A stretch of DNA of 64,000 nt from an uncultured bacterium (GTDB lineage: Bacteria > Bacillota_I > Bacilli_A > RF39 > UBA660). Under the pieces are notes generated by a model, which was not told the DNA's origin, did no database searches, and saw nothing but the letters and a program-made list of their open reading frames with translations. Numbering within the stretch: the stretch's first letter is position 1; each line of letters opens with the position of its first letter. Both the position numbers and the translations under genes were made by a program. Shown here piece after piece: positions 3,263-51,147 of this stretch. Where the stretch lies: positions 349 to 64,348 of the forward strand of contig CASDZZ010000003.1 in the NCBI GenBank assembly GCA_949285875.1, read 5' to 3'.

Positions 3263-4709
3263 GTGATGAAGGATAAGTTAAAACAAAGGAAAATATTAAT
3301 AATAGTACTAGCTGTAATACTTACGTTATCAGTGGGATATGCAATATTTAGTGAATCATTAAACATAAGTGGTTCAGCATCAACTGGAAGCACTAACTTT
3401 AATATCGTGTTTGATAGGGTTGGTAATATAAGAGAAGTAGAAGCAAGTAATACAACAGCAGAGATAAAAGAAAGTGGTAAAAAATTAGAGATAAATGTAC
3501 CCGGCCTTTCTATGCCAACAGCATATGCAATAATACCAGTTACAATAAAAAATAACGGAGATATAACAGCAAAGGTAAAAGAAATTAGAACAGAAGGACT
3601 TGATACTACTGATATAAAAGTAACTTGAAGTAAATATTAAAGTGATTTGGGATAGATCATCTACAAGTACAAGTGTAGAAGCTAGCTTTAGTATAGAAAT
3701 AGTATATGAACAAGTAGCAAGTGGTAGTGTTACAACAACTACACCAGTAGTTGATAACAGATTTATTTATGAAGGAACGAAATTAATGGGATTATCTGCT
3801 GAAGGAGAAGAATATTTTAAGCAATCAGAAAATAAAGAATTAATTATACCAGAAGGAACAACAGAAATAGCAGATGGAGCATTTTTTGTGCCTTATGGAT
3901 ATGAAGGGGAAAAACCAGATTTTTTGTTTTTTGAAAGTCTTTTAGCAGATTATATATTGAATAATTTAACTGATGAGGAAAAACTAAAATTTGAAAAAGA
4001 AAATGAACTTTTTTCAGCTATATCTGAGTATAATATTCAGAATTCTAGATTAAAAGATTATACTGTTAAATTTCCTAATTCTCTAATTTCTATCGGTAGA
4101 GGATCGTTTGCATCTCTAATGCTAACAGGAGATTTAATAATACCAAATAGTGTAAAAGAAATAGGTTCAATGGCTTTTACAGCAAATGGTTTTAATGGGA
4201 TTTTAAAATTATCAAACTCTTTAAGTAAAATAGATATTCAAGCTTTTGCCGGCAATCAATTTAGTGGAGGGTTAACTATTCCAGATAGTGTTGCAAGTAT
4301 AGAATTTAATGCTTTTTTTTCTTCTGGCTTTTCTAGTAACTTAGTATTATCAAAAAATTTAAAAAAAATTGATATGATGGCTTTTGCAGCTAACCAATTC
4401 ATTGGGGGTTTGGTAATACCAGATAGCGTAACGGAAATTGGAATGAGTGCTTTTGGAGAATCTGGTTTTACCGGTACATTAACATTACCAAATAGCATAA
4501 CAAAAATTGAGAATGGTACATTTTCTGGCACTGGTTTTACAGGAGAATTATACATACCAGATACTGTAACAGATATAGATTATAATGCTTTTTGGGATTG
4601 TAATAATTTAACATCAGTATCAATACCATCAAGCACAACATATAAAGAAGTTGCATCTGGTGGTGATGATCCATCCTTTCCAACAGGAATACCAATAAAT
4701 AAAAGATAA
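3263..4709 (+). pseudogene. Frameshifted paralog of the BspA-type LRR surface protein at 59571..60998
   Basis: ORFs 3263..3628 and 3642..4709 are colinear with the single 486-aa ORF at 59538..60998. The break is at GTAACT TGA (3626..3628). The second frame is +1 relative to the first and is open from 3624. Compared with the intact copy, the segment encoding YEGLLLEDVLNPNDER is missing. LRR_5-like repeats (IPxSVxxIGxxAF) follow. Confidence 0.75.
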
Positions 4710-4713
4710 TTCT

Positions 4714-4745
4714 TGAAACTTACTTATGTAGGTTTCTTTTTTTTG
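4714..4745 (+). terminator. Putative intrinsic terminator after the LRR pseudogene
   Basis: Short stem GAAAC/GTTTC (plus a U-G pair) followed by a T8 run. Weak stem. Confidence 0.45.
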
Positions 4746-4762
4746 TAAAATTTTATCTATTT

Positions 4763-4789
4763 TTAGCACTCATGTATTGACATTGCTAA
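4763..4789 (+). promoter_or_regulatory. CIRCE operator (HrcA binding site), imperfect right arm
   Basis: TTAGCACTC-N9-CATTGCTAA versus the consensus TTAGCACTC-N9-GAGTGCTAA. The left arm is perfect and the right arm matches 7 of 9. It lies directly upstream of hrcA. Confidence 0.8.
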
Positions 4790-4805
4790 AATTACATATT
4801 ATAAT
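4777..4805 (+). promoter_or_regulatory. SigA-type promoter of the hrcA-grpE-dnaK operon
   Basis: TTGACA (4777..4782), a 17-nt spacer, then TATAAT (4800..4805). The -35 box and spacer overlap the CIRCE element. Confidence 0.7.
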
Positions 4806-4835
4806 GTTGGTAGACTACAAAAAGAAGGTGGATAT

Positions 4836-5825
4836 GTGATAACAGAAAGACAAAGTAAGCTTCTTAAATTGATTGTAGAAGAATATATTAAAACAGCAAC
4901 TCCAGTGGGATCTGGAGCAATATGCAAAATATTAGATTGTTCTTCAGCTACGATTAGAAATGAGATGGCAGTATTAGAAGAACTTGGATATTTGGAAAAG
5001 ACTCATACTTCTTCTGGTAGGGTTCCAAGTGAGCTTGGTTATAGGTATTATGTAGATTATTTAATGAAACCTAAGGAAATGACAGGAGAAGATATGCTTA
5101 AACTTCAGACTATTTTTGATAATAAGCAACTAGCTTTATCAGATGTAATAACAAGAAGTTTAGAAATTATTTCTGAGATAACAAACTGTACATCAGTTGT
5201 TTTAGGGTCTGATAGTTCGAATAATAATCTTAAACAAGTAGAAGTTGTTCCTTTAAGTGAGAATAGTATAATTGCAATTGTTATCACTGATAAAGGACAT
5301 ATAGAACATAAACAATTAAATGTTGGAGAAAGAGTATCCACTTCTGAGATGAAAAAGGTAGTTGAATTAATTAATAAGTTATTAGTGGGAACTCCACTAG
5401 ATGAAGTAAGTTCTAAATTAGAATTTGAGATTAAACCAATTATAGGAAATTATGTTAAATCTCATGAAGCTTTGTATCAGGCTTTTTATAATGCATTTAA
5501 TGAATTTTCATTTAAGAGTCATATGCATATGGCTGGAAGAACAAAATTATTAGATTATAGAGAGTTTGATAACGTTAATAAAGTTAAAGAAATATTAGAT
5601 AAGTTTGATGATGATAATATGATTAAAAAAATTGAAGCTGATGATAATGATATAAACGTTTTTATAGGTCATGAAAATAATTTTGATGATGATGTATCTG
5701 TTATAAAAACTAAGTATAACATTAATGGGGATGAAGGCACTATTGCAATAGTTGGACCTAAAAGAATGGATTATGAAAAGGTTGTTTCCCTTCTTAACTT
5801 TATTAAACGTAACATAGAAAGGTAG
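4836..5825 (+). CDS. hrcA: Heat-inducible transcription repressor HrcA
   Basis: GTG start after RBS GAAGGTGG. The N-terminal winged helix reads ERQSKLLKLIVEEYIKTATPVGSGAI. 329 aa, CIRCE upstream, grpE downstream. Confidence 0.93.
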   Translation: MITERQSKLLKLIVEEYIKTATPVGSGAICKILDCSSATIRNEMAVLEELGYLEKTHTSSGRVPSELGYRYYVDYLMKPKEMTGEDMLKLQTIFDNKQLALSDVITRSLEIISEITNCTSVVLGSDSSNNNLKQVEVVPLSENSIIAIVITDKGHIEHKQLNVGERVSTSEMKKVVELINKLLVGTPLDEVSSKLEFEIKPIIGNYVKSHEALYQAFYNAFNEFSFKSHMHMAGRTKLLDYREFDNVNKVKEILDKFDDDNMIKKIEADDNDINVFIGHENNFDDDVSVIKTKYNINGDEGTIAIVGPKRMDYEKVVSLLNFIKRNIER

Positions 5826-5830
5826 GTACT

Positions 5831-6376
5831 ATGGAAAAAAAAGTAGATAAAAAACCAAAAAAAGAAGGAAAAAATATTGAAGATAATAAAGAAATTAAAC
5901 AAGAAAATATTGAACTTACAAAGCAAGAAGTAGAAGAGATGAATAAAAAAGTTACAGAAGCTGAAGAAAAAGCTTTAAGAGCTCAAGCTGAACTAATAAA
6001 TTATCGTAAAAGAAAAGATGAAGAAACTGAAAAAAGATTAAAATATGCTAATGAAGATTTAATTTTAGAAATTCTTCCTGTTCTTGATAATTTTGAGAGA
6101 GCTATTAAAATGGACGATGATAACTTAGAAGATGAAGTATCACAGTTTTTACAGGGAATAAAAATGGTTTATGCAGGCCTTACTAAAGCTTTAGAAAAAT
6201 ATGGCGTTAAGGAAATAGAAGCTTTAGGTAAAGAGTTTAATGCAAACTATCATCAAGCAGTTATGACTGAATCTATAGATGATAAAGAAAAAGATATTAT
6301 TTTAGAGGTATATCAAAAAGGATATATGCTTAAAGATAAATTACTTAGACCAGCGATGGTTAAGGTAAACAAATAA
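5831..6376 (+). CDS. grpE: Nucleotide exchange factor GrpE
   Basis: Coiled-coil N-terminus with RAQAELINYRKR, then LPVLDNFERA and the C-terminal LRPAMV motif. Confidence 0.95.
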   Translation: MEKKVDKKPKKEGKNIEDNKEIKQENIELTKQEVEEMNKKVTEAEEKALRAQAELINYRKRKDEETEKRLKYANEDLILEILPVLDNFERAIKMDDDNLEDEVSQFLQGIKMVYAGLTKALEKYGVKEIEALGKEFNANYHQAVMTESIDDKEKDIILEVYQKGYMLKDKLLRPAMVKVNK

Positions 6377-6390
6377 AGAAAGGATGATAA

Positions 6391-8223
<1,833 letters not shown>

Positions 8224-8287
8224 TAAAGCATTAAAGTTCTAGGAAACTAGAACTTTATGCGTAATTAAATAAAAAAAGGAGACTCTC

Positions 8288-10090
8288 ATGGCTAAAGAAG
8301 AAAAGAAAAGAAGTGAGATAGAAGAAAAATATAAATGGGATTTAACCAAGATGTATGAAAATGAAGTTGCCTTTAATGAAGATTTAGATAAAGCTTTGAA
8401 ATTAATTAACCAAATAAAAGATTTTAAAGGAATAATAACAAAAAATTCAGAAACTTTGTATAAATATATGAAACTTGATGACGAGATAAATATCTTGATT
8501 ACTAATTTATATGTTTATGCAAGTTGTAAAAATGATGAAAATATGGAAGACGATAATTCTCGAAAAATGTATTCTAAAGTATTAAATTTATTATCTAAAT
8601 ATGATGATTTGTCTAGTTTTGTCGGTCCAGAATTGTTAAATACAAATTATGCGGTTAAAAAAAAATACATAGAAGAAAATGATGATTTAAAAGAATATAA
8701 ATTTGATTTAGAACAAATTTATCGTTATCAACCTCATGTTTTAAGTGAAAATGAAGAAAAATTAATTTCTAATATAAGTGAATTGAGAAACAAATTTGAA
8801 AACAATTTTAATATTATAAATAATACATTAGTTGATTTGGGTTATATTAAGGATGAAAATGGTAATGAAGTTAAACTTACTAATGGTAATTATTCTAAAT
8901 ATATAAGGTCGTTTGACCGTAGGGTAAGACGTGATGCTTACATTGCTAGGGGTGAAGCTTATAAAAAGTTTGCAAACCTAATTTCTACTGATTACGAAGC
9001 TACTATTAAATCAAATAGCATGATTTCAAAAGCTAAAGGTTACAAATCTAACCTTGATATGTATTTATTTAGTGATGGGTTAACAACTGAGATATATGAT
9101 AATTTACTTAAGGTAGCAGATGAGAATTTAAATGTACTTCATAAGTTTTATAAATTAAAAAAAGATATTTTAAAACTTGAAGAGTTATGTGTTTATGATT
9201 TATCAGTACCTTTAGTTAAAAGTAATGATAAAAAATACACGCCTGAAGATGCTATAAACATCATATGTGATGCTGTAAGTATATATGGAGAGGAATACGC
9301 TTCAAAGGTAAGACAACTCTTTAATGAAAGATGCATAGATTTTTATCCAAATAAAGGAAAAAGAACGGGATATTATCAAAATAATTCTTTTCTTGGAATA
9401 GTTGTTCTTTGCAATTATAATGGCGATTATAGTTCTGTTTCATCTGTAGCACATGAATTAGGACATGCTATGCATTCTTATTATAGTATGAAAAATAATA
9501 AGGAGCATTTATCTGAATATGCTATTTTAGTGGCAGAAATAGCATCTTTAACCAATGAGTTGATTTTATCTAATTACATAATTAATAATACTTCTGATAA
9601 AAACTTGAAATTAGAATCAATAAATAACATTTTAGATGTTTTTGCGGATAATTTTTATGGAACACTATGTGAAGGCTCAGTATTTGAAAAAATAGTGCAT
9701 AGTAAAATAGAAAATGATGAAGTTTTATCAGAAAATGATTTTAATGAAATATTTGACAAGATAATAAAAAAACATCATGGAAAATTAGTAAAAGAATCAG
9801 ATTATACTAAATATAATTGGGCAAGAATTTCTCATTTTTACACTCCTTTTTACTATTATAAATATTCTATTGGGGTTTGTGGGGCTTGCTATGTTGCTAA
9901 AAAAATATTAAATGGAGATAAAGAATTTTTAAATAAATATTTAAATTTCTTAAAACTTGGTGGTAGCATGATGCCACTTGATGAGTTAAAAACAATTGGA
10001 CTAGATTTATCTAAAACGGAAGTAATTGAAGAAGGTATAAAATACTTTAATCAATTAATTGATGAGTTTGAAGAGTTATATAATAGTTAG
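8288..10090 (+). CDS. pepF: Oligoendopeptidase F (M3B metallopeptidase)
   Basis: 600 aa with the HELGHAMH zinc motif and an N-terminus typical of PepF (KYKWDLTKMY). Confidence 0.85.
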   Translation: MAKEEKKRSEIEEKYKWDLTKMYENEVAFNEDLDKALKLINQIKDFKGIITKNSETLYKYMKLDDEINILITNLYVYASCKNDENMEDDNSRKMYSKVLNLLSKYDDLSSFVGPELLNTNYAVKKKYIEENDDLKEYKFDLEQIYRYQPHVLSENEEKLISNISELRNKFENNFNIINNTLVDLGYIKDENGNEVKLTNGNYSKYIRSFDRRVRRDAYIARGEAYKKFANLISTDYEATIKSNSMISKAKGYKSNLDMYLFSDGLTTEIYDNLLKVADENLNVLHKFYKLKKDILKLEELCVYDLSVPLVKSNDKKYTPEDAINIICDAVSIYGEEYASKVRQLFNERCIDFYPNKGKRTGYYQNNSFLGIVVLCNYNGDYSSVSSVAHELGHAMHSYYSMKNNKEHLSEYAILVAEIASLTNELILSNYIINNTSDKNLKLESINNILDVFADNFYGTLCEGSVFEKIVHSKIENDEVLSENDFNEIFDKIIKKHHGKLVKESDYTKYNWARISHFYTPFYYYKYSIGVCGACYVAKKILNGDKEFLNKYLNFLKLGGSMMPLDELKTIGLDLSKTEVIEEGIKYFNQLIDEFEELYNS

Positions 10091-13868: not shown

Positions 13869-14093
13869 GTTTTAAGCGATGAAAGAAAGAGTAAAGCAAT
13901 ACTTATTTAAGAGAGCATGGTAAGGTGAAAGCATGTATAAGTAGACCTTTATAAATGGTTCTGGAGCTTAACTTATCGATATGTAGGTAAGTTCGTTGCT
14001 ATGCGTTAAATAGATTGAGTGCGTATTTATTAAATACGAATTAAGGTGGTACCGTGGACTAAAGTTCATCCTTTAATTAGGATGAGTTTTTTT
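13869..14093 (+). promoter_or_regulatory. T-box riboswitch leader (candidate Met specifier AUG) controlling nudix-metG
   Basis: Stem I elements AGAGAG and GGTGAAA. The candidate specifier is ATG at 13955..13957, followed by G. The T-box sequence AATTAAGGTGGTACCGTGG is at 14039..14057. The terminator hairpin TCATCC/GGATGA with a T-run is at 14065..14093. Confidence 0.88.
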
Positions 14094-23053: not shown

Positions 23054-24119
23054 ATGGAAACTTTTATTAAAGGGACTTATAAAAAAAATATTTTTTCTTC
23101 TAACGATGGTTTTACGGTCGGTTTAATTAAAATAAAGGATACTAATGATCAAGATTTAACAGATTATAATGATAAGTTGTTTACCTTTACCGGATTATTT
23201 GCGGAACTAAAACTTGAGGAAGATTACATTTTTTATGGAGAAGTAATTGATAATTTAAAATATGGATTACAGTATAAGGTTACTAAATACGAAAAGATTA
23301 TGCCTCAAGATAAAGATGGTTTAATAACATTTTTATCAAGTGATATATTTCCTAAAGTGGGTGAAAAAACCGCAAAAAATATTGTTGAATGTTTAGGAGA
23401 AAATTGCTTGGATAAAATTTCTAGTGATTATGAGTGCCTTCTTAAAGTGCCTAAAATGACAGAAAAAAAAGCTATGGAAATACACTCAAGATTAGTTAAG
23501 TATAACGAAAGTTACCAAACTGTTATTTATTTGGTTAATTTTGGTTTTAGCATGAAAGATGCTCTTAAAATTTATAACCATTATTATGAAGATACAATAA
23601 GAGTAGTAGAAAATAATCCATATGAGTTAATTGATACAATAGATGGTATTTCATTTAATAAAATAGATGAGCTAAGGGAAAAAACAAATGTTTCAGTTGA
23701 TGATGAAAGAAGAATTGAAGCTTTAATAATAAGTATAATGAAAAATATATGTTTTCAAAAAGGAGATACTTATTTAGACTTTAATACTATTTATAGTGCT
23801 GTTACGTCGGTTTATGAACTGGATATTAATGAAGAAAAGGTAAAATATTATTTAATAATGCTTTGCCAGTTGGGTAAAATAATAATAGAAGATGATAAAT
23901 ATATATTATATAGCTATTATAAAGCAGAAAATTATATAAGTACTTCAGTTTATAATATAACAAATAAAGAAGATGTTAAAATTAAAGATATAGATTTAAA
24001 AATAGAAAGGCTAGAACTTTTTTTTGATATAAAATATAATGAGGAACAAATAAAAGCTATAAAACAAGCATTGGTTAAGAATTTTTCTATTATAACGGGA
24101 GGCCCAGGTACGGGAAAAA
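23054..24119 (+). CDS. recD2: RecD2-type ATP-dependent DNA helicase, exon 1 (ends after the first base of the Walker A Thr codon)
   Basis: RecD2-like N-terminus ending ...FSIITGGPGTGK. The intron 5' end GTGCG starts at 24120. The track ORF's tail (SATSLVVK stop) is intron sequence. Confidence 0.88.
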
Positions 24120-24904
24120 GTGCGACAAGTTTAGTAGTCAAATAAACAAAGCTACTACATTATCTAAGATAATGAACTGATAGTCTGAGATGAGAATTGA
24201 TAGGGTAACGCCTTGAAGCTCACTGCTAATACTTCGACATGCAGGAGTTGGTAACAAACCTGTGTGAAGCTCGAGGAAGTCGGCTGAAGAACACCCTAGA
24301 ACAGAAAATTATTAAGTAATGTTGGTACAAAAGTGTCTAGAGACCGCCCGCAGGAAAGATAATAGAGTATGTTCAAGGAAAAATGAGTCAATAACTCATG
24401 TGTTTGATAGGTCGGGCATCTATAAAATAACTATGGTTAGAATGTATTCAAAATACTGACGAACCTCCGAATGTAAGTCTCGTAAAAGTGGAAAGAGTCG
24501 AAAGGGCTCGGGATAGTTATATGCCAGAGGGCAGACTGAATTTTTTCTAAGTTCGACCTTAATCGTTACAGGCGATTGCGGTATATCGGGATAGAGGAGT
24601 GAACCTAAGGTTATATGGTAAAAGATAAGGCTATCGGAACTTGGAATTATCCAACCTTAAGCTTTAAGGTTTAAGGTAGCAGAATCGAAAACATTTAATA
24701 ATGTATAAGTTATGCGTAATGGATAATAAGCGGTGGTATTACTTACGATGTTTCTTGTAATGAGAAACGGAGGGATGACCACTAGTCATAATATAAGATT
24801 AACGTAAACTTACATCAAAATTTTATATAGCAAATTGCGAGTAAGAATAATAAACTTCGTAAGTTGGGAAGTTAACTCTTCGCAGAAATCGAGGTGAATA
24901 CGTT

Positions 24905-26845
24905 ATGAAAGATAAAAACTTTACACGAAAAGAAAAATCTGCATATTATTCACAATGTTTGCAGATGTACCAAGGTTTATATGAGTTAACAAAAGAACAA
25001 ATTAAAGATAAAGGTTATGCTTCGCATAAAAGCTTAATGTATAAAATAGCTTCTACAAAGAATATAGTGAATGCAATAAGAAGTATTTCAAAAAACACAG
25101 GCGGAAGAACCGCTGGTGTGGATGGAACTACCATTAGGGATGTTAAGAAATATAATAACTCAGAAATGGTAAGAAGAATACAAAATAAACTTCTAGGTAA
25201 CAACTATCAACCTAAAAGAATTAAAAGAGTATATATTCCTAAAAATAATGGGGATTTAAGACCTCTTGGAATTCCAACAATAGAAGATAGAATTATACAG
25301 CAAGCAATAAAGCAAGTACTTGAACCAATAGCAGAAGCTCAATTTTCAAGAGTAAGCTCAGGATTTAGACCAGGAAGGTCTGCTCATAATGCAATGGCAC
25401 AAGTAGACAATATGATACAAATGTCTAAAATGAGTTGGTGTGTCAAATGTGACATAAAAGGATTCTTTGACAATGTTGACCATAATAGATTAATTAAAGC
25501 ATTGTGGAGTTTTGGTATAAGAGACAAAAAAGTTCTTAGTATTATCAAAACAATATTAAAAACAGAAATAGTAGATATGGATGGCACAGTAACAAAACCT
25601 GAAAAAGGAACGCCACAAGGCGGAGTTATAAGCCCGCTACTAGCAAATATTTACTTAGATGCTTTAGACAAATGGATAGAATCTCAATGGACACATTTTA
25701 AAACAAGGCACACATATTACTCAGATATAAGAGATAAGAGCTATCAAAGACCAAATCAAAATAAGAAATATAGAGCACTTCGAAGTAACTCAAAAATGAA
25801 AGAAATGTATATTATTCGATATGTAGATGATTTTTTGATTTTTACAAACAGTAAAGAAAATGCAGAGAAAATAAAACATGCTACTATATTATGGTTAAAA
25901 CAAAATTTAAAACTTGAGTGTAGTCTTGAAAAAACAAAGCTCATAGACCTTAAAAATGAATTTGCAGAATTTCTGGGATTCAAATTTAAAATATCCAATA
26001 GAGTAAAAGTAACATCTAAAGGAAATAAAAAATATATTATAGATTCACATATTGCAGATAAGTCGCTTAAAAATATAAAAGAAAAGTTGAACAAACAAAT
26101 CGATTATATAGCTACTGCAAATGATAATATAACATTTCATAAAGCCATACAAATTTACAATAGCATGGTAATGGGCATTCATAATTATTTCTGTGTTGCT
26201 CATGGAGTTAATAATGATTTAAGCCGAATTGGCTGGGATATTCAAAGGAAACTCTATAACAAAGTTCTCAAAGATTATCCAGACAGAAACTCTACACCAG
26301 AAAATTATCTTCCGTGTTACCAGATAATAGTAAATAAATATGGTACTTCCAAAGAGCTAAAATGGTGCAAAGGAATTCCGATAATTCCAATCAGGTATGT
26401 ACAATTTAAAGCTCCAATAAGCTTTAATGAAGGTTATAATCTATATGATATAGAAAATAATCTAAATACAATAAACCTTGAAGATATGGCAAAAATAATT
26501 GCATATTTTTCAAGTGATGTGCATAATGAACGAGACACAACGGAATTATACGAAAACAAAATCAGTAGATTAGTTAGCCAAAAAGCTCTCTGTTATATTA
26601 CGAAAACACCGTTGATATATGGAGAAATAGCTACACATCATATACTTCCTGTACATCTTGGTGGAACTGATAAATATGAAAATATTATCATAATACAAGA
26701 AAGAGTTCATGAACTAATACATAATTCAGAATCACTACAAGAAGCATTAGAGAAGCTCAAATCGGAATATTCAACGGGAAAAAGAATCGAAAAGATGTTT
26801 ACTGAAATCTATATTAAAGCGAACCCTGAGAAATCTAAAATTTAA
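24905..26845 (+). CDS. Group II intron-encoded protein: reverse transcriptase, maturase (X) and HNH endonuclease domains
   Basis: RT blocks RPLGIPTIEDRIIQQA, DIKGFFDNVDH, GTPQGGVISPLLANIYL and RYVDDFLIF (YxDD). The C-terminal HNH reads HHILPVHLGGTDKYENIIIIQERVHELIH. RBS GAGGTGA. Confidence 0.95.
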   Translation: MKDKNFTRKEKSAYYSQCLQMYQGLYELTKEQIKDKGYASHKSLMYKIASTKNIVNAIRSISKNTGGRTAGVDGTTIRDVKKYNNSEMVRRIQNKLLGNNYQPKRIKRVYIPKNNGDLRPLGIPTIEDRIIQQAIKQVLEPIAEAQFSRVSSGFRPGRSAHNAMAQVDNMIQMSKMSWCVKCDIKGFFDNVDHNRLIKALWSFGIRDKKVLSIIKTILKTEIVDMDGTVTKPEKGTPQGGVISPLLANIYLDALDKWIESQWTHFKTRHTYYSDIRDKSYQRPNQNKKYRALRSNSKMKEMYIIRYVDDFLIFTNSKENAEKIKHATILWLKQNLKLECSLEKTKLIDLKNEFAEFLGFKFKISNRVKVTSKGNKKYIIDSHIADKSLKNIKEKLNKQIDYIATANDNITFHKAIQIYNSMVMGIHNYFCVAHGVNNDLSRIGWDIQRKLYNKVLKDYPDRNSTPENYLPCYQIIVNKYGTSKELKWCKGIPIIPIRYVQFKAPISFNEGYNLYDIENNLNTINLEDMAKIIAYFSSDVHNERDTTELYENKISRLVSQKALCYITKTPLIYGEIATHHILPVHLGGTDKYENIIIIQERVHELIHNSESLQEALEKLKSEYSTGKRIEKMFTEIYIKANPEKSKI

Positions 26846-26880
26846 ACAGTAAGTGAAAAGTTAACTTATATTATGATGGC

Positions 26881-26914
26881 ACGCCGTGTGCGGTGAAAGT
26901 CGCATGCACGGTGT
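26881..26914 (+). ncRNA. Group II intron domain V (catalytic hairpin)
   Basis: ACGCCGTGTGCGGTGAAAGTCGCATGCACGGTGT matches the 34-nt DV consensus (GAGCCGUAUGCGAUGAAAGUCGCACGUACGGUUC) at most positions. The triad reads CGC rather than AGC. Confidence 0.85.
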
Positions 26915-26963
26915 AGAGCGGGGGAAAAGCTGGAGATAATATCAAAGGCTTACCTATCGCTAT

Positions 26964-28087
26964 CTACAATAATAAAAGGTATTGTTCAACTTTATAAGAT
27001 GGTTTATGGTTATTCTCCAGATAAGTTAAAAGAAAAAATGGTTCTTTTGGCACCTACGGGAAGAGCGGCCAAAAGAATGAGTGAAGCTTGTAATTATCCT
27101 GCGTGCACGATTCATAGATATTTAAAATGGAATAAAGAAACTGGAAAATTTGGTTTTGATGAACGAAATAAAGTTTCGGCAGAATTTATTATAGTAGATG
27201 AAACCAGTATGATAGATACAGAACTACTATATAACTTTCTAAAAGCACTACCTAGTAATATTAAGCTTGTGTTTATAGGAGATTATAATCAGCTTGAAAG
27301 CGTTGCTCCAGGGAAAATTTTAAAAGATTTAATTGAATCTGAAATAGTAAATACGATATTTTTAAAAGAAATATACCGTCAAGAGCAAAACTCTTATATT
27401 ACTGAACTTGCTTATGAAGTTAATAAGAGTGAGCTAGCCGAAACTTTTTTAGATAAAAAAGATGATTATAATTTTATAAGTTGCACGGATGATGAAATTT
27501 TAAAAATAACTTGTTTGTTAGCTAAAAAGGCAATGGATAAAGGTTATGATTTGCAAAACATTCAGGTTCTAGCTCCTATGTATAAAGGTATTAACGGTAT
27601 AGATAATTTAAATAAAATTTTGCAAAATATATTCAATCCGAGAGATAATTTAAAAAATGAAACTTATGATGCTGATATAATATATAGAGAAGGAGATAAA
27701 ATTCTTCAGTTAGAAAATATGCCAGATGATAATGTTTTTAATGGAGATATTGGTTTTATTGAAAAAATAGATGGTAAAGATATTTTGGTGGATTTTGATG
27801 GAAATAAAGTTATTTATAAACCAAAAGATTATAGAATGATTAAACATGGATATGCCATAAGTATTCATAAGGCTCAAGGAAGTGAATTTGAAATCGTTAT
27901 AATGCCGGTTACTAATGCTTATAAAATGATGCTTTATAAAAAAATCGTTTACACTGGTATAACAAGAGCTAAAAAATCTTTGATGTTAGTAGGCGATCCA
28001 AAGGCTTTTTGCAAGGCTGTATATAATACTCAAAACAAAGAAAGGAATACTTTATTGAAAACTTTATTAATTAGTAATATTTTATAG
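26964..28087 (+). CDS. recD2: RecD2-type helicase, exon 2
   Basis: Continues in frame as (T)TIIKGIVQLYKMVYGY...LLAPTGRAAKRM, IIVDETSMID (Walker B), and a SH3-like/2B region up to VYTGITRAKKSLMLVG. Confidence 0.88.
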
Positions 28088-29078: not shown

Positions 29079-30944
29079 GTGAAGAAGGTAAATGATAAGG
29101 GGTTTACACTAGTAGAATTATTAGTAACAATAGCAATTATGCTTACTATATTAGGTATTGCTATTGTAAGTTATGTAAATATTAGTAGTAGGAAGAAAAC
29201 AGAGGCTTATGAGTCAATCAAAACACAAATAGAAGCTGCAGCAGAACAGTATTTTCAGTCAAATAGTTATTTATTAAATGAATTAAACAGTAATGGGTCA
29301 ACGGCGATTGTAAGTATTGGAGAGCTTGTTAAAGCGGATTATTTAAATAAAGTAACTGACCCAAGGGATGGTACAACATTAAATGAGTGTAATTATGTTG
29401 AAGTTAGTAAAAATAATAATGGTTATAATTATGATTTCGTTGATGACATAGCTAGTGGTGAAGAATGTTCTAATAAAATTTTTACGGTTGTAACAGAAGC
29501 AGGCGCTCCCTCAGCTAAAATTAAATTTTATAATGAAAGTTGGCAAGAAGTAGCACCTGCATCTTCTGGTTGGTTTAATTCGTCTGTTCTTGGAGGAGAA
29601 AATAAACCTTTATTAGTAGGTATCGAAGTAGATACTAAAGGTAATGGAACGATAGATAAAGTTGAAGTTAATAACCAAGTAGTAAGTGAAAACAATAATG
29701 TTTATAGTTATAAGGTACAAGAGGATGGCATTAAAAACAATGTTCAAATAGTGGTTGCAAATAAAGCTGGGAAAACTGTTACATATAGAACAAGTTGGAA
29801 AAAAGATACGACGGTACCTAATGGAAATACATCTATAGCAAGTACAAAAAGTTATAATTCAAACATTGTTAATTTATCTATAACTAATTTTACAGATGCT
29901 ACTTCAGGAATTGCTAAGGCTGTAATACCTAGCTCTGAAATAGATGCTAATTTATTCAGTAATGGAAGTTATACAAAGAAAAATTATAGTTTAAGTTCAT
30001 CTTTAGATGGTAAAAGTTATTCTGTATTAGTAAAATTATATGATAAAGCTGGAAATGAAAGAAAATTGAGTACATTAAATTATTTAGTATATAAGGAATG
30101 TTCAGTAACTTCTTCTAAAGTAAGTACTGGAAATTGGTCTAAATGTTCTAAAGCTTGTGGTGGAGGTACTCAATCTAGAACTAACGTAACAATGGTTGTA
30201 GATAATAATACAAGTAAGACTTGCTCATCAAAAAATAATATAGAAACACAAAAATGTAACGTAGCTGCGTGTGATACAACTCCACCAAATTGTCCACAAA
30301 TTTGGGTTTCTTATAAAGGTGGAGGATGGCAAACTTTAAATACAAGTCGTTCATGGCAAAATCAAAATATCAAATTTAAAGTAAGACCTACGCAAGATAC
30401 TGCTAAATGGGTTTGGAGTACGAATAACTCTGCTGAAGAAGGTAAAACTATTTCTGGAAATGCTGAAAGAAGTGATATCGTATTATCTTTAGAAGGTTCT
30501 AATAGGGCATTATATTTAACGGTATATGATGCAGCGGGAAATAAACGAAACTGTAATTACACAGGATTTAAAATAGATAAAACGACACCTAATGTTGATT
30601 ACCATAGAAATCCTGTTCCAAAATCATGTGGAGGAAAATCAGGTATAAATTCTGGCTATAAGGTTAGTGATAGCTTATCTGGATTAGCATCGGTTAAAGA
30701 TTATTTTAGTTTGACTACTTTATCTTGGAGTGATGGATATGCTATAAATAGATCTATAACTGCTGGTCAAAAAACATTTGAAAAACAAAATACTACATGG
30801 TCTGGCGCTGCTGGTTCTTGCGGAGGAGATTATAATAAACCTGTAAGTGGAAAGGAATACTATCATTATTTAAAAGCTTGTGATGTTGCTGGTAATTGTA
30901 CAGGAGTTAATAAAACTCAAAAAACTTCAAAAATTGGCGGATAG
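29079..30944 (+). CDS. Giant modular type IV pilin 1 (621 aa): prepilin leader, pilin head, Ig-like modules and a TSP1-like Cys module
   Basis: GTG start after AAAGGAGG. The leader is MKKVNDKG|FTLVELLVTIAIMLTILGIAIV (Gly-1, Phe+1, Glu+5). Downstream motifs DTTVP, DTTPP and DKTTP, with SGI/SGL...YDxAGN, are typical of bacterial Ig-like modules. Confidence 0.85.
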   Translation: MKKVNDKGFTLVELLVTIAIMLTILGIAIVSYVNISSRKKTEAYESIKTQIEAAAEQYFQSNSYLLNELNSNGSTAIVSIGELVKADYLNKVTDPRDGTTLNECNYVEVSKNNNGYNYDFVDDIASGEECSNKIFTVVTEAGAPSAKIKFYNESWQEVAPASSGWFNSSVLGGENKPLLVGIEVDTKGNGTIDKVEVNNQVVSENNNVYSYKVQEDGIKNNVQIVVANKAGKTVTYRTSWKKDTTVPNGNTSIASTKSYNSNIVNLSITNFTDATSGIAKAVIPSSEIDANLFSNGSYTKKNYSLSSSLDGKSYSVLVKLYDKAGNERKLSTLNYLVYKECSVTSSKVSTGNWSKCSKACGGGTQSRTNVTMVVDNNTSKTCSSKNNIETQKCNVAACDTTPPNCPQIWVSYKGGGWQTLNTSRSWQNQNIKFKVRPTQDTAKWVWSTNNSAEEGKTISGNAERSDIVLSLEGSNRALYLTVYDAAGNKRNCNYTGFKIDKTTPNVDYHRNPVPKSCGGKSGINSGYKVSDSLSGLASVKDYFSLTTLSWSDGYAINRSITAGQKTFEKQNTTWSGAAGSCGGDYNKPVSGKEYYHYLKACDVAGNCTGVNKTQKTSKIGG

Positions 30945-30964
30945 TTTGACTTTGAGTTTATTTT

Positions 30965-31002
30965 AAGATTACATCAATAGTTAGTTGATGTAATCTTTTT
31001 TT
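30965..31002 (+). terminator. Intrinsic terminator after pilin 1
   Basis: 13-bp perfect stem AAGATTACATCAA / TTGATGTAATCTT, 7-nt loop, T-run. Confidence 0.85.
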
Positions 31003-31075
31003 AAGAAAATTATAAGTATTAATTGATAAAATTTATAAAATGTGTTATCTTATTAATATATGATAGAGGTGTATT

Positions 31076-32965
31076 ATGTTAAATAAAAAAGGATTTACTT
31101 TAGTAGAACTATTAGTAACAATAGTAATTATGCTTACTATATTAGCTCTTGCAATTGTAAGTTATGTAAATATTAGTGATAGAAAAAAAACTGAAGCCTT
31201 CGAATCAATAAAAACTCAGGCAGAGGCTGCAGCGGAACAATATTTTCAGTCAAATAGTTATTTTCTAAAAGAATTGGATGATGATAATGTTGCCTATGTT
31301 AGCATAGGTAGACTTGTTAAAATGGATTATTTAAACAAAGTTGTAAATCCTTTGACAGGAAAAGTTTTAGATGAATGCAGTTATGTTAAAGTAGAGAAAA
31401 AAAATTATGGTTATGTATATACATTTGTAGAAGAACCTAGAGACAAAGAAGAAGATGGAACTTGCGATAATAATAATTTTACTGTTGTTCAAGATAAATC
31501 GCCTAGTGCTCCAACAGCTAAAATTGAATTTTATTCTTTGAAAAATGGGTTGGAAAAAAAGATAGAGGATTATTCTAATTATTGGTTAAATATTGAGCAT
31601 TTAGGAGAAAATGGTATACTCAGAGTAAAAGTTATCCCTACTTCGGAATCTCCAATAACTTCTGTAACTTATAAAACAACAAATGGTACAACCACAGAAG
31701 CTGAAAAAAATAATAATTATTATCAATTTGATGTTGATGATGATGGTGTGGAAAGCAACGTGCCTATTACGGTTACTAATAGTTCTGGAAAAGTATATAA
31801 AGAAGAAATCGCTTGGAAAAAGGATACTGTGGCTCCTACGGGAACAATTAGTTTAAAAAGCACTGCTTCTAATTATTCATCCAATGTGGTAAATATTTCT
31901 TTTAATTTAAAGGATGGCGACGGCGGTTCGGGTATTGAAAAACTTGATTTTAATGCAAAAGATGATTGGGAACTCCAAAATGGAACTACTGACTCAGTAA
32001 AAACTTTAAGTATATCAAATTATAGTTTAAATGATGAGATGGATGGCTCTTCATATGCCGTAAGTGCTGAAATATATGATGTTGCTGGAAATAAGGGAGT
32101 TACTAATTCACAGTCTTATGTTTTATATGAAGATTGTACAACAAACGTAAAAGTTACCAACGTAATAGGGCCTAAATGGTCAAGTTGCGTTGATGGATTA
32201 AAAATTTATCTTGATGTTAAAGTGACAGATGATACTGTAACTGGAAATCGTTGTGAAACTTATGCGGATGGATTAACTGCTACTTGTGAAACAACACCAC
32301 CTGATTGTCCTTCTCTTACTACTTCTAGATTACCTGGTGATACTGGTAAGAATGGGTGGTATAATAAAGGAATAAGATTTAACATAACGCCTGCTAAAAA
32401 TACTTCAAAATGGGTATTTAAAACTGATAATGGTAGTGGTGGTTATACAACATGGAAGACTCATACAGGTACGGCTTCAAATAGTGACCATACCTTGACA
32501 GGAAATGGTGCTGAAAGAATGGTTCAAATAGAAGTTTATAATTCTAGTGGAGCTAAAAGAACTTGTAATTATGGACCGTATAAAATAGATACTACTCCTC
32601 CAACAATAAAATATAATTATTATACAGCTTCAGCTTGTCCAGGAGATCCTTCGCCAAGTTCTAGACCAGGAGTGCAAGCTAGTTTTGTTGTAACTGATAA
32701 TTTATCAGGATTAAATTCAAACTCTGTAAAATATTATTATGATGGTAAATCTAGTTGGACTAACCAAAGTATTTATATTTCAGGAAAAATCAGCGGTACT
32801 CAGATGTCTTTTTCGAAGACTAGTACATATTCTAATTATGGTAATTGTAAAGTAGGAAGTTCCGTTAGTAAGAACATATGTTATTATAATCATATAAGAG
32901 CAACTGATGTAGCAGGAAATGTTACAACTGTTAACTCTAGTAGTTGTAAATATCCTGGCCCATAA
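31076..32965 (+). CDS. Giant modular type IV pilin 2 (629 aa), paralog of pilin 1
   Basis: Leader MLNKKG|FTLVELLVTIVIMLTILALAIV. It has the same module order as pilin 1 (CETTPPDCP, YKIDTTPPTI, ATDVAGN). RBS AGAGGTG; putative promoter TTGATA...TGtTATCTT. Confidence 0.85.
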   Translation: MLNKKGFTLVELLVTIVIMLTILALAIVSYVNISDRKKTEAFESIKTQAEAAAEQYFQSNSYFLKELDDDNVAYVSIGRLVKMDYLNKVVNPLTGKVLDECSYVKVEKKNYGYVYTFVEEPRDKEEDGTCDNNNFTVVQDKSPSAPTAKIEFYSLKNGLEKKIEDYSNYWLNIEHLGENGILRVKVIPTSESPITSVTYKTTNGTTTEAEKNNNYYQFDVDDDGVESNVPITVTNSSGKVYKEEIAWKKDTVAPTGTISLKSTASNYSSNVVNISFNLKDGDGGSGIEKLDFNAKDDWELQNGTTDSVKTLSISNYSLNDEMDGSSYAVSAEIYDVAGNKGVTNSQSYVLYEDCTTNVKVTNVIGPKWSSCVDGLKIYLDVKVTDDTVTGNRCETYADGLTATCETTPPDCPSLTTSRLPGDTGKNGWYNKGIRFNITPAKNTSKWVFKTDNGSGGYTTWKTHTGTASNSDHTLTGNGAERMVQIEVYNSSGAKRTCNYGPYKIDTTPPTIKYNYYTASACPGDPSPSSRPGVQASFVVTDNLSGLNSNSVKYYYDGKSSWTNQSIYISGKISGTQMSFSKTSTYSNYGNCKVGSSVSKNICYYNHIRATDVAGNVTTVNSSSCKYPGP

Positions 32966-32988
32966 AAATTGTTTATTGATGAAAAAAG

Positions 32989-33023
32989 CAAAGATAATTT
33001 AAACATAACTTCTTTGTTTTTTT
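32989..33023 (+). terminator. Possible weak terminator after pilin 2
   Basis: CAAAGA/TCTTTG stem with a 16-nt loop and a T7 run. Confidence 0.4.
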
Positions 33024-33086
33024 AATTTTTTTATTGAAAACTATTAATGGTTATGGTATCATATCTATGAAGAATAGAGGTGTTTT

Positions 33087-34982
33087 ATGTTAAACAAAAA
33101 AGGTTTTACGTTAGTAGAATTATTGGTTACAATAGCTATTATGTTAACAATTTTGGGCATTGCAATTATAAGTTTTGTTAGTTTGAGCAATAAAAAGAAG
33201 CAAGAATCATATGAACTCGTAAAAGATCAAATTGAAGAAGCTGCAAAACAATATTTTGAAACTAACGAATATTTGTTTGGTGGTGTTATTGATGGTTCTA
33301 CAGGTGAAATTTCTCTTGGAAAACTAGTAGGGGAAGACTACTTAAACAAAGTAACTGACCCTAGAACAGGAAAGCCATTTTCTTATTGTACAGTTGTTAG
33401 AGTGACAAAAAATGGAAATTCATATGATCTAAAACTTGATGAAAGTACTGTAGATACTTCTGAAACAAGTTGCGATTCGGATAGCTCTGTTGTTATAACA
33501 GAACCTGGAGCGCCAAAAATTGATTTGTCGGTAACTGGAATCAAGGGAAAAAATGATTGGTATGTAAAACAGGATGTAAAAGTAACTGCAAATATAGACG
33601 CGGATGCTGCTCCCATATCTAATATTGGTATATGTGAAGGTGTAGACCACTGTGAGAATTTTTCTAATGTGGGTAATTTGAATTTGAAACAAGAAAAATC
33701 TTTTGGAGAAACTTCAAAAAAAACTGTTGGATACGTGGTAACTAATTTGGCAGGTAAGAGTGCTAAAGCATGGGTAGATTTCAAATTAGATAAAACTGCT
33801 CCTACTTTAGTTACTAAAACTGAGAAATCTGACTGGACGAATAGTGATACTGTAAGCTATAGCTCAAGTATTAATGACAATCTTTCTAAAATTTCTTCTG
33901 TAGTTCAATATTGGAATAAAACAGATTTAAATGAGTCTCAAGCCAATAGTAGTAATTATAATTGGAATGGTAGCTATTATAATAATAAAAAAGATGGGAC
34001 AAAAACTGAAGATGAAAATTTAGTAAAAGGAAAAGAAAGCTACACAGCAACTGGTAAATTTAGTGGTGAAGGGGTTAGAAAGATTATTTATAAAGCTTGC
34101 GATATGGCTGGCAACTGTGCTTATAGTAATGAAGCTGTAGCTCGTATAGATAGGACAGCACCTACTTGTACTATTAATTTAAATTATGGTACTAAGGGAA
34201 ATAAAATTAATGGCATTCAGTGGTATTTGCCTAAACAATATGTTGGTGTAAATTTGAAAAATATGAATGATGACATGAGTGGTTTAAAAGAAAACACATA
34301 TGGTTTATCAACAAAAGCAGAAGATTTTAATAAAAATATTTGGGCTGCTCAGTATGAAACTAGTAAAGTTACTTGGTATGGTAATGTTATGGATAATGCT
34401 GGTAACGTTGGAAAATGTTCATCAACTTTTGCAGTTGAAACTTCAGTATCATTTGCATTCAACGATACTAAATCTGCAGGAGCTACTGCGGTAAAAGGAA
34501 CTGGAAAAGGAAAACCAATTTTCGGCACTAGAACTGATGGTGATGGTTTTACAACAGAAAATACTTGTTCTTATGGTAAGTGTAGTACTTCAAGATGTAC
34601 GGTAGATGGAAAAGCTTGCCCAAATGAGTATTTTGCAAAGTCTTGCATGTTTGTAGGTGATCATTTATCTTATTTTGATATTAAAGCAATATCAGCTGGT
34701 GGTAGTAAAACGTATGGGGTTCATACTACTCCTGGTATAACTGAAAATGGTCTTCATGTTGAAGTTGTAAAACATAATGGTATTGCAGGTGAAAGACAAA
34801 AATGTCCAAACGGGGCTAGTCAAGGCACGTATGATGCTTTTAAGTGCGGTATTGCAAGTGGCGGTGGCACTGTTAATATGACAGTATATAATTTTACTTA
34901 TACAACACCTGCAGGATTAAAAGCTAGCAATTCAATAACTTTATACACTCAATACATGACTAATTGTGGTTATAGTTATTAA
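33087..34982 (+). CDS. Giant modular type IV pilin 3 (631 aa), with divergent C-terminal modules
   Basis: Leader MLNKKG|FTLVELLVTIAIMLTILGIAII. The pilin head is conserved up to about residue 135. Distinct modules follow (KLDKTAPTL, RIDRTAPTC) and then a Cys-rich C-terminus. Promoter TTGAAA-17-TATCAT; RBS AGAGGTG. Confidence 0.85.
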   Translation: MLNKKGFTLVELLVTIAIMLTILGIAIISFVSLSNKKKQESYELVKDQIEEAAKQYFETNEYLFGGVIDGSTGEISLGKLVGEDYLNKVTDPRTGKPFSYCTVVRVTKNGNSYDLKLDESTVDTSETSCDSDSSVVITEPGAPKIDLSVTGIKGKNDWYVKQDVKVTANIDADAAPISNIGICEGVDHCENFSNVGNLNLKQEKSFGETSKKTVGYVVTNLAGKSAKAWVDFKLDKTAPTLVTKTEKSDWTNSDTVSYSSSINDNLSKISSVVQYWNKTDLNESQANSSNYNWNGSYYNNKKDGTKTEDENLVKGKESYTATGKFSGEGVRKIIYKACDMAGNCAYSNEAVARIDRTAPTCTINLNYGTKGNKINGIQWYLPKQYVGVNLKNMNDDMSGLKENTYGLSTKAEDFNKNIWAAQYETSKVTWYGNVMDNAGNVGKCSSTFAVETSVSFAFNDTKSAGATAVKGTGKGKPIFGTRTDGDGFTTENTCSYGKCSTSRCTVDGKACPNEYFAKSCMFVGDHLSYFDIKAISAGGSKTYGVHTTPGITENGLHVEVVKHNGIAGERQKCPNGASQGTYDAFKCGIASGGGTVNMTVYNFTYTTPAGLKASNSITLYTQYMTNCGYSY

Positions 34983-50914: not shown

Positions 50915-51147
50915 ATGTCATTTGCTTTGAACAAGAGGAGTAAACTAATTTAATATTATAGAGAGCTAACGATAGGTGGAAGTTAGTATATTATTTTGTT
51001 GAAGGTAGCTTGGGAGCTTAATTTTTGAAAGTAAGTAGAAAATTACGTGTGCCGCGTTAAGGCTATTAAGTGTATATCTTTAAGATATAAATTAAGGTGG
51101 TACCATGGGCTTAAAGTCCATCCTTTAGATAGGATGGATTTTTTTAA
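50915..51147 (+). promoter_or_regulatory. T-box riboswitch leader (probable Val specifier GUA) controlling valS
   Basis: AGAGAG and GGTGGAA stem I elements. The specifier region is GAAGGTAGC at 51001..51009, with GTA at 51005..51007. The T-box AAATTAAGGTGGTACCATGGG is at 51089..51109. The terminator TCCATCCT/AGGATGGA with T7 is at 51117..51145. Confidence 0.88.

Follow-up and report, generated by a model that had tools for sequence, protein, structure and literature searches.

The stretch of DNA analysed here (the window; 64,000 nucleotides, positions 349 to 64,348 of contig CASDZZ010000003.1 in GenBank assembly GCA_949285875.1) belongs to an uncultured gut bacterium (GTDB lineage Bacteria; Bacillota_I; Bacilli_A; RF39; UBA660), whose genome, G000, comprises 1.10 Mb on 46 contigs at 90.65% completeness. 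On its forward strand, the gene of the helicase RecD2 is interrupted after the first base of the Walker A Thr codon by a group II intron, which carries an open reading frame (ORF) that specifies its intron-encoded protein (IEP), with reverse transcriptase (RT) and maturase regions. The host gene, the intron and its ORF were located as follows.

23054–24119, + strand: recD2 exon 1 (Pfam OB_YrrC, 2.3e-16; HHH_RecD2, 1.2e-25), together with the beginning of the ATPase domain through G-K and base 1 of the Thr codon
24120–26963, + strand: group II intron, 2,844 nt, probable bacterial class B (IIB) (RF02004, RF00029, exact exon restoration)
24905–26845, + strand: IEP, 646 aa, with RT and X/maturase regions and a putative C-terminal HNH-type endonuclease region (TIGR04416, RVT_1, motifs)
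26964–28087, + strand: recD2 exon 2, remainder of the Thr codon, AAA_30/AAA_19, SH3_13 and UvrD_C_2 (Pfam), in frame with exon 1

Exon 1 ends in ...GGT ACG GGA AAA A, and joining of position 24119 to 26964 gave a RecD2 ORF of 729 aa without internal stop, the junction reading ...ITGGPGTGK/TTIIKGIVQLYKM... (short form GPGTGK/TTIIKG; the slash marks the insertion point). The architecture detected with Pfam on both halves, i.e. OB_YrrC, HHH_RecD2, SF1 ATPase core, SH3_13 and UvrD_C_2, is that of RecD2/YrrC, and exon 1 was colinear with residues 1–356 of uninterrupted orthologues. Uninterrupted recD2 genes with a full-length match were found in 21 genomes of the same genus (69–77% identity, colinear over residues 1–729), both window exons matching them equally well over the full protein length. 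In 12 of these genomes the DNA of the empty site was read, and it could be aligned, nucleotide by nucleotide, with the exon junction that had been predicted; dozens of public RecD2 homologues are exactly 729 aa long. The initial annotation had placed two helicase ORFs (23054–24145 and 26999–28087) on either side of an RT ORF, and this arrangement was borne out. Its intron ends were confirmed as well: GTGCG at 24120 was read directly with exact restoration of the exon, and the alignment to Rfam RF00029 stopped exactly at 26963. The continuous RecD2 of about 730 aa that it had predicted was recovered in frame, and boundaries, Rfam models and empty orthologue sites agreed on an insertion within the Walker A codons.

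A second recD2 was not found in G000, where the search returned weak matches to another helicase only. Since recD2 is single in this genome, the supply of full-length RecD2 is predicted to depend on splicing of the intron, as the initial annotation had proposed; the sequence data support this. For annotation purposes, both recD2 "fragments" and the "RT" of such genomes are to be regarded as a single intron-containing gene.

The intron was present as a single copy in G000, with only one IEP and one domain V. Its RNA was matched by two Rfam covariance models, group-II-D1D4-5 (RF02004; 24172–24426, 125.7 bits at a threshold of 34.5) and Intron_gpII (RF00029; 26879–26963, 57.1 bits at a threshold of 40), and its termini (GUGCG start, ...CUAU end) fit the GUGYG / AY rule. 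For domains I to IVa, the non-coding parts of 8 family members with IEPs 68–84% identical to that of the window were aligned and folded with RNAalifold; for domains V and VI, 13 sequences were aligned and 500 shuffles served as control. The following elements were assigned.

24120–24124, + strand: 5' splice-site consensus GUGCG, invariant across all family members
24126–24643, + strand: domain I, closed by the I(i) stem (24126–24131 / 24638–24643), supported by RNAalifold covariation
24132–24157 and 24158–24174, + strand: two inserted hairpins inside the I(i) stem, both with compensatory changes (columns 13–38 and 39–128)
24646–24727, + strand: domain II, covariation-supported helices (columns 610–698)
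24732–24783, + strand: domain III, covariation-supported helices (columns 703–754)
24835–24862, + strand: conserved domain IV hairpin upstream of the ORF (columns 807–834 conserved in 8 of 8 sequences)
24891–24896, + strand: Shine–Dalgarno sequence GAGGUG, between this hairpin and the IEP ORF
26881–26914, + strand: domain V, 34-nt hairpin with GAAA tetraloop, 2-nt bulge and CGC catalytic triad (26882–26884)
26917–26961, + strand: domain VI; its branch-point A (26956) is bulged and lies 7 nt ahead of the 3' splice site

In the 192 pairs predicted for domains I to IVa, 97.9% of the alignment cells were paired and compensatory changes occurred in 85, as against 35–41% paired cells and 7–14 compensatory pairs in controls with slid partners. 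Domains V and VI together had compensatory changes in 11 of 30 pairs, a count reached in 0 of the 500 shuffles. Domain V, which had been proposed at 26881–26914 and was placed there by the 13-sequence alignment (columns 87–120), had 98.9% of its cells paired and 6 of 14 pairs compensatory; its triad consists of C26882, G26883 and C26884, the middle G forming a G-U pair. The branch-point A26956 (column 162) was unpaired in all 13 aligned sequences. By analogy with Ll.LtrB, the hairpin at 24835–24862 is possibly DIVa, the binding site of the IEP. A pairing of intron positions 2–5 with columns 775–778, also returned by RNAalifold, never varied and was therefore not interpreted.

The IEP passed the NCBI equivalog model for group II RT/maturases, TIGR04416 (339.6 bits, cut-off 300), and matched RVT_1 at 4.7e-41. 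The RT motifs RPLG, GFRP, TPQGG and YVDD were conserved, as was a C-terminal HH..N..H core which is common to relatives passing Pfam HNH (PF01844). The closest named IEPs were "ltrA" proteins of Bacillus cereus-group plasmids (38–41% identity). Against solved structures, LtrA was the second-best match (1.4e-45), and the solved IEPs of classes ML and C and of the T. elongatus intron scored alike (144–166 bits). The IEP ORF was open in every intron copy, and dN/dS was 0.03–0.10 where dS was measurable, which indicates strong purifying selection.

[quoted passage not shown] Class B is further described as confined to Firmicutes, and classes C, D, E and F as lacking the endonuclease (En) domain (PMC4424553). 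The named hosts of the intron family, metagenome-assembled genomes (MAGs) of "uncultured Bacilli bacterium" and one Faecalimonas MAG, fit the restriction to Firmicutes. Judged by RNA marks and host range, the intron is probably of the IIB type, bacterial class B. A class C (IIC) reading of the CGC triad was ruled out, given the 646-aa IEP with a putative HNH region, the second exon-binding site (EBS2) of the relatives and an insertion within coding sequence instead of after a terminator.

On the contigs that encode the closest public IEPs, each IEP down to 68% identity was situated between two halves of recD2. Junction mapping gave the identical insertion point, GG(N) AA(R) A / C(N), in all 12 loci, which represent no fewer than nine different hosts, and removal of the intron restored a frame of 726–753 aa in every complete locus except L022, which has a second intron further on. 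The lineage thus occupies only this one nucleotide of recD2. Relatives whose IEPs are about 40% identical are inserted in unrelated genes (those of a membrane protein and of a small conserved protein, and phage-like genes) and, in one case, at another recD2 site; the site specificity therefore belongs to the recD2 subclade. A 67% DNA match in genome G101 was set aside as a different intron (IEP 44% identical) located outside recD2.

Two loci carry further introns in or near recD2. In L022, a JGI metagenome contig, the second group II intron of recD2 (6946–9832) lies at ...HKSQGS/E (G/AG of the Glu codon, helicase motif V), and a third intron has its 3' end at 1036 (≤1036) in the upstream gene, so that three related introns occur within 10 kb. 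In a Clostridia MAG (L036, about 3660–6424), a distant relative (IEP 41% identical) occupies a third recD2 site, the Lys codon of HKSQGSE (A/AA); the 5' end of this intron is atypical, GUAUG in place of GUGYG.

With all hosts being metagenome assemblies, and with some contigs interrupted within the intron or at its end (L026, L018, L019 and the pair from ERZ17292904), it might be supposed that a repeat was wrongly joined into recD2 of several MAGs during assembly or binning. Against this, the junction is nucleotide-exact and frame-restoring in every host, the same joins come from different assemblers, samples and projects, and both window exons match same-genus orthologues at one level along the protein; such an artefact is hardly credible. 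In two further samples, independent assemblies yielded exon 1, intron and exon 2 of this species; one of these assemblies breaks inside the intron. In sample ERZ17292904, the assembly break inside the intron (L051/L052) is what would be expected if co-resident species shared a near-identical intron, and intron-internal breaks of this kind could hide further carriers in short-read MAGs.

Pairwise comparison of introns and host proteins gave the following values.

Window and L014/L028 (one host): intron 99.2% identical over 2,844 nt; RecD2 protein 39–40%
Window and L026: intron 99.4% nt identity; RecD2 about 46% (exon 1 only, the contig ending at the intron)
Window and L027: intron 98.9% nt identity; RecD2 protein 48%
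L041 and L042: IEP 92%; RecD2 protein 33%
L025 and L045: IEP 86%; RecD2 protein 41.5%

Synonymous divergence (dS) among the 99% copies was 0.013–0.021, whereas exon DNA was barely alignable between hosts with near-identical introns (about 67% identity). Two hosts of the approximately 99% copies are other genera in the family of the window genome (G134, G225). A sample of about 400 genomes of the order contained the intron in 3; a search of 37 further genomes of the window's genus did not find it, and among 399 genomes drawn from the class no carrier outside the family came up. A copy with 76% identity was found in the Faecalimonas MAG, and no copy of this type was found among 300 genomes sampled from the Faecalimonas family.

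The flanking exons were host-specific from −5/−8 upstream and from +8 downstream, which means that no flanking DNA moved with the intron. This bears on the possibility that the intron passed between hosts as recD2 DNA, through homologous recombination or gene conversion, and not by RNA-mediated retrohoming. DNA uptake as such is plausible, with competence-type pilin genes located just downstream of recD2 (ORFs from 29079), but exon DNA is host-specific up to the pairing core (differences at −5, −8, −11, −14 and from +8 onward), RecD2 proteins with 39–48% identity between hosts are too diverged for homologous recombination, and there is no co-conversion tract. Spread at the DNA level was accordingly considered very improbable. 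The comparisons indicate recent between-genera retrohoming into the recD2 Walker A site, and the window's host appears to have acquired its intron recently and horizontally from another genus of the same family, the route of transfer being inferred from sequence identities.

As to a vehicle, IEPs in the phage collection reached at most 41% identity, and no direct phage vector for the lineage was found. The neighbourhoods of the intron loci L041 (7333–7824) and L042 (1050–2306) contain matches to a dUTPase of phage type and to a RecE/YqaJ-like exonuclease. L041 and L042 are the two most divergent recD2 hosts, and their recD2-like genes gave no OB_YrrC match. Such genes may lie on mobile elements and be possible vehicles of the intron, which is offered as a hint and not as proof.

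Pairing between intron and exons was examined position by position, with intron-binding sites (IBS) in the exons and exon-binding sites (EBS) in the intron assigned as follows.

24107–24111, + strand: IBS2 position, GGUAC (exon −13 to −9), from the pairing table
24113–24119, + strand: IBS1, GGAAAAA (exon −7 to −1), 7 of 7 pairs with EBS1 UUUUUCU, one G-U included
24488–24492, + strand: candidate EBS2 position, GUGGA in the window and GUNCC in relatives, 5' of a conserved hairpin
24542–24548, + strand: EBS1, UUUUUCU, in the terminal loop (24538–24549) of the hairpin 24532–24555
26964, + strand: IBS3, C

The EBS1 candidate of the initial annotation (24542–24547) was retained and extended by one nucleotide; it occupies the terminal loop of a hairpin with covariation support and pairs with GGAAAAA. 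In all 11 hosts, 6 or 7 of 7 pairs were formed between EBS1 and GGNAARA. The base opposite the Gly wobble position (−5) covaries in the window, L025, L029 and L042 (pairs seen: A:U, U:A, C:G and U:G) and is mismatched in others. GUNCC pairs 5 of 5 with the exon sequence GGNAC in L043, L022, L041 and L042, its middle base covarying with the Gly wobble of the exon (C:G in L043, A:U in L022, U:A in L041/L042); on account of these three different middle pairs, the element was identified as EBS2. As all hosts have C at +1, the EBS3 partner of this base cannot be located by covariation.

The invariant bases of the occupied sites are exactly the non-wobble positions T..T.A..GG.GG.CC.GG.AC.GG.AA.A/C. 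All 12 same-genus empty sites carry every one of them and thus look susceptible. In G000, six other P-loop genes (contigs C5, C8, C10, C17, C25 and C37) match the 14-nt pairing core GGNACNGGNAARAC; all six look-alike sites were unoccupied and all are without the upstream GGNGGNCC, which spans −22 to −14 in recD2. From what is known of LtrA, GGNGGNCC would be the region in which an En-plus IEP contacts the distal 5' exon.

Taken together, the window very likely contains an intact mobile intron of the IIB type, probably class B, in the Walker A Thr codon of a single-copy chromosomal recD2. Several points weigh against this reading. The class label was placed by RNA marks and host range; the IEP scored 18.3 bits with Pfam HNH, below the gathering cut-off of 21.4; and a near-identical intron-less allele of the same species was not found, the best uninterrupted RecD2 being 80% identical in the junction region. 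The candidate EBS2 of the window, GUGGA, pairs with only 2–3 of 5 exon bases, the Faecalimonas variant likewise being unmatched at EBS2. The spreading variant of about 99% identity may no longer depend on EBS2. Finally, the ligated exons and the lariat were deduced from sequence, so that splicing in vivo, the lariat pathway and target-primed reverse transcription are presumed steps.

The weak EBS2–IBS2 complementarity of the window variant also agrees with a dead insertion, in which the recently arrived intron does not splice here, recD2 is a fresh pseudogene and no RecD2 is made. The low dS among copies marks the insertion as recent, so that intact exons say little on selection since arrival, and RecD2 is possibly dispensable, as a search of 41 relatives did not detect it in 4. 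On the other hand, the catalytic elements are all intact with the IEP ORF open in every copy, near-identical copies across several genera need a spliced lariat ribonucleoprotein (RNP) and hence a splicing-competent element, and older, diverged family members (68–84% IEP identity) are likewise located in fully open recD2 frames. A dead insertion was therefore regarded as improbable. Because of the purifying selection on the IEP, the intact catalytic RNA elements and a recent spread that requires spliced RNP, the intron was rated as active with high confidence.

An active intron would be transcribed within the recD2 pre-mRNA. The 646-aa RT/maturase/HNH protein would be translated from domain IV and would help the ribozyme to fold, whereupon the bulged A26956 would attack the 5' splice site and exon ligation would yield the mRNA for the 729-aa RecD2. 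The excised lariat, bound to the IEP, would then reverse-splice into intron-less recD2 DNA, with the target being contacted by EBS1 at GGNAARA, by EBS2 at GGNAC (in most relatives) and by the protein at the upstream GGNGGNCC. For Ll.LtrB, EcI5 and the class B intron B.h.I1, spliced forms are described as lowering host mRNA (PMC6003770), and by analogy the output of RecD2 may be reduced even with efficient splicing.

A more far-reaching picture, put forward tentatively and with well under even confidence, is that of an intein-like life history. The lineage would be locked on the recD2 Walker A codons and would be sweeping between genera of a family of gut Bacilli with reduced genomes. The sweeping variant would have given up the EBS2–IBS2 pairing, which spans two codon wobble positions, and might tolerate synonymous differences between hosts by relying on EBS1 and on protein contacts to the invariant GGNGGNCC, with genes of the L041/L042 type, linked to recombination genes, as possible vehicles.

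Elsewhere in the window, three large ORFs (621, 629 and 631 aa) downstream of recD2 at 29079–34982 have prepilin-type N-terminal methylation motifs, and the first of them, of 621 aa, gave weak matches to thrombospondin type 1 repeats as well. Pilin-like proteins of 621–631 aa are unusually large for a 1.1-Mb genome. Two T-box leaders were found at 13870–14076 and 50918–51128 (112 and 146 bits), upstream of ORFs on the + strand.

The usual account of bacterial group II introns is that they avoid housekeeping genes (PMC4424553, PMC6003770), and in one survey group II introns as a whole, unlike inteins and group I introns, did not favour conserved sites (PMC2814812). The present lineage behaves opposite to this usual pattern, being found at one P-loop nucleotide of recD2 in at least nine hosts, with near-identical copies across genera. 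Mobile class-B-like group II introns are already known; what is new is homing strictly to the P-loop codons of recD2, coupled with a very recent spread from genus to genus. A search of the accessible literature returned no paper that joins group II introns with recD2, and among the RecD papers listed none appeared relevant by title and abstract. The lineage offers a natural system for how a retrohoming element crosses species boundaries. The whole shared target consists of the invariant non-wobble bases of I/L-T-G-G-P-G-T-G-K-T; it can be asked which target positions are read by RNA and which by protein, and whether loss of the EBS2 pairing widens the host range.

Among known systems, class B introns such as B.h.I1 of Bacillus halodurans, B.a.I2, the B.c.I4 group and the ORF-less derivative C.te.I1 are alike in their Firmicutes hosts, and the window IEP has a putative HNH-type domain. 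This IEP is only about 40% identical to that of any named intron; the window intron has no 3' extension or shifted splice site and is located in a conserved chromosomal gene, not on a plasmid or mobile element. Ll.LtrB of Lactococcus lactis, in the relaxase gene ltrB, with its protein LtrA, is alike in having an En-plus IEP and in site-specific retrohoming via EBS1, EBS2 and protein contacts to the distal 5' exon, the En domain being putative and retrohoming presumed for the window intron; it differs as a class ML/IIA intron in a gene of a conjugative element, as opposed to an IIB, class-B-like intron in a chromosomal helicase gene.

Insertions into conserved genes are described for recA of Geobacillus kaustophilus (Chee & Takami 2005, cited in PMC7306698 and PMC2504315) and, in the Bacillus cereus group, for polC, radC, mutS and a uvrD/rep helicase (PMC2504315). 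According to these sources, such introns likewise contain an ORF, interrupt a conserved gene of DNA metabolism and render the host protein splicing-dependent. They occupy other genes and sites, whereas the window lineage is found at one site across genera and in a Clostridia MAG, with 99% copies, a pattern not described for those cases in the portions of the sources considered. A parallel in life history is given by inteins and by homing-endonuclease group I introns in P-loop and other catalytic motifs, which, as described in PMC2814812, also use the most conserved codons of DNA-metabolism genes, are patchily distributed, reuse a site across distant hosts and spread horizontally. They move by cleavage with a protein endonuclease followed by recombination, whereas the window intron would move by RNA-guided retrohoming, without co-conversion of the exons.

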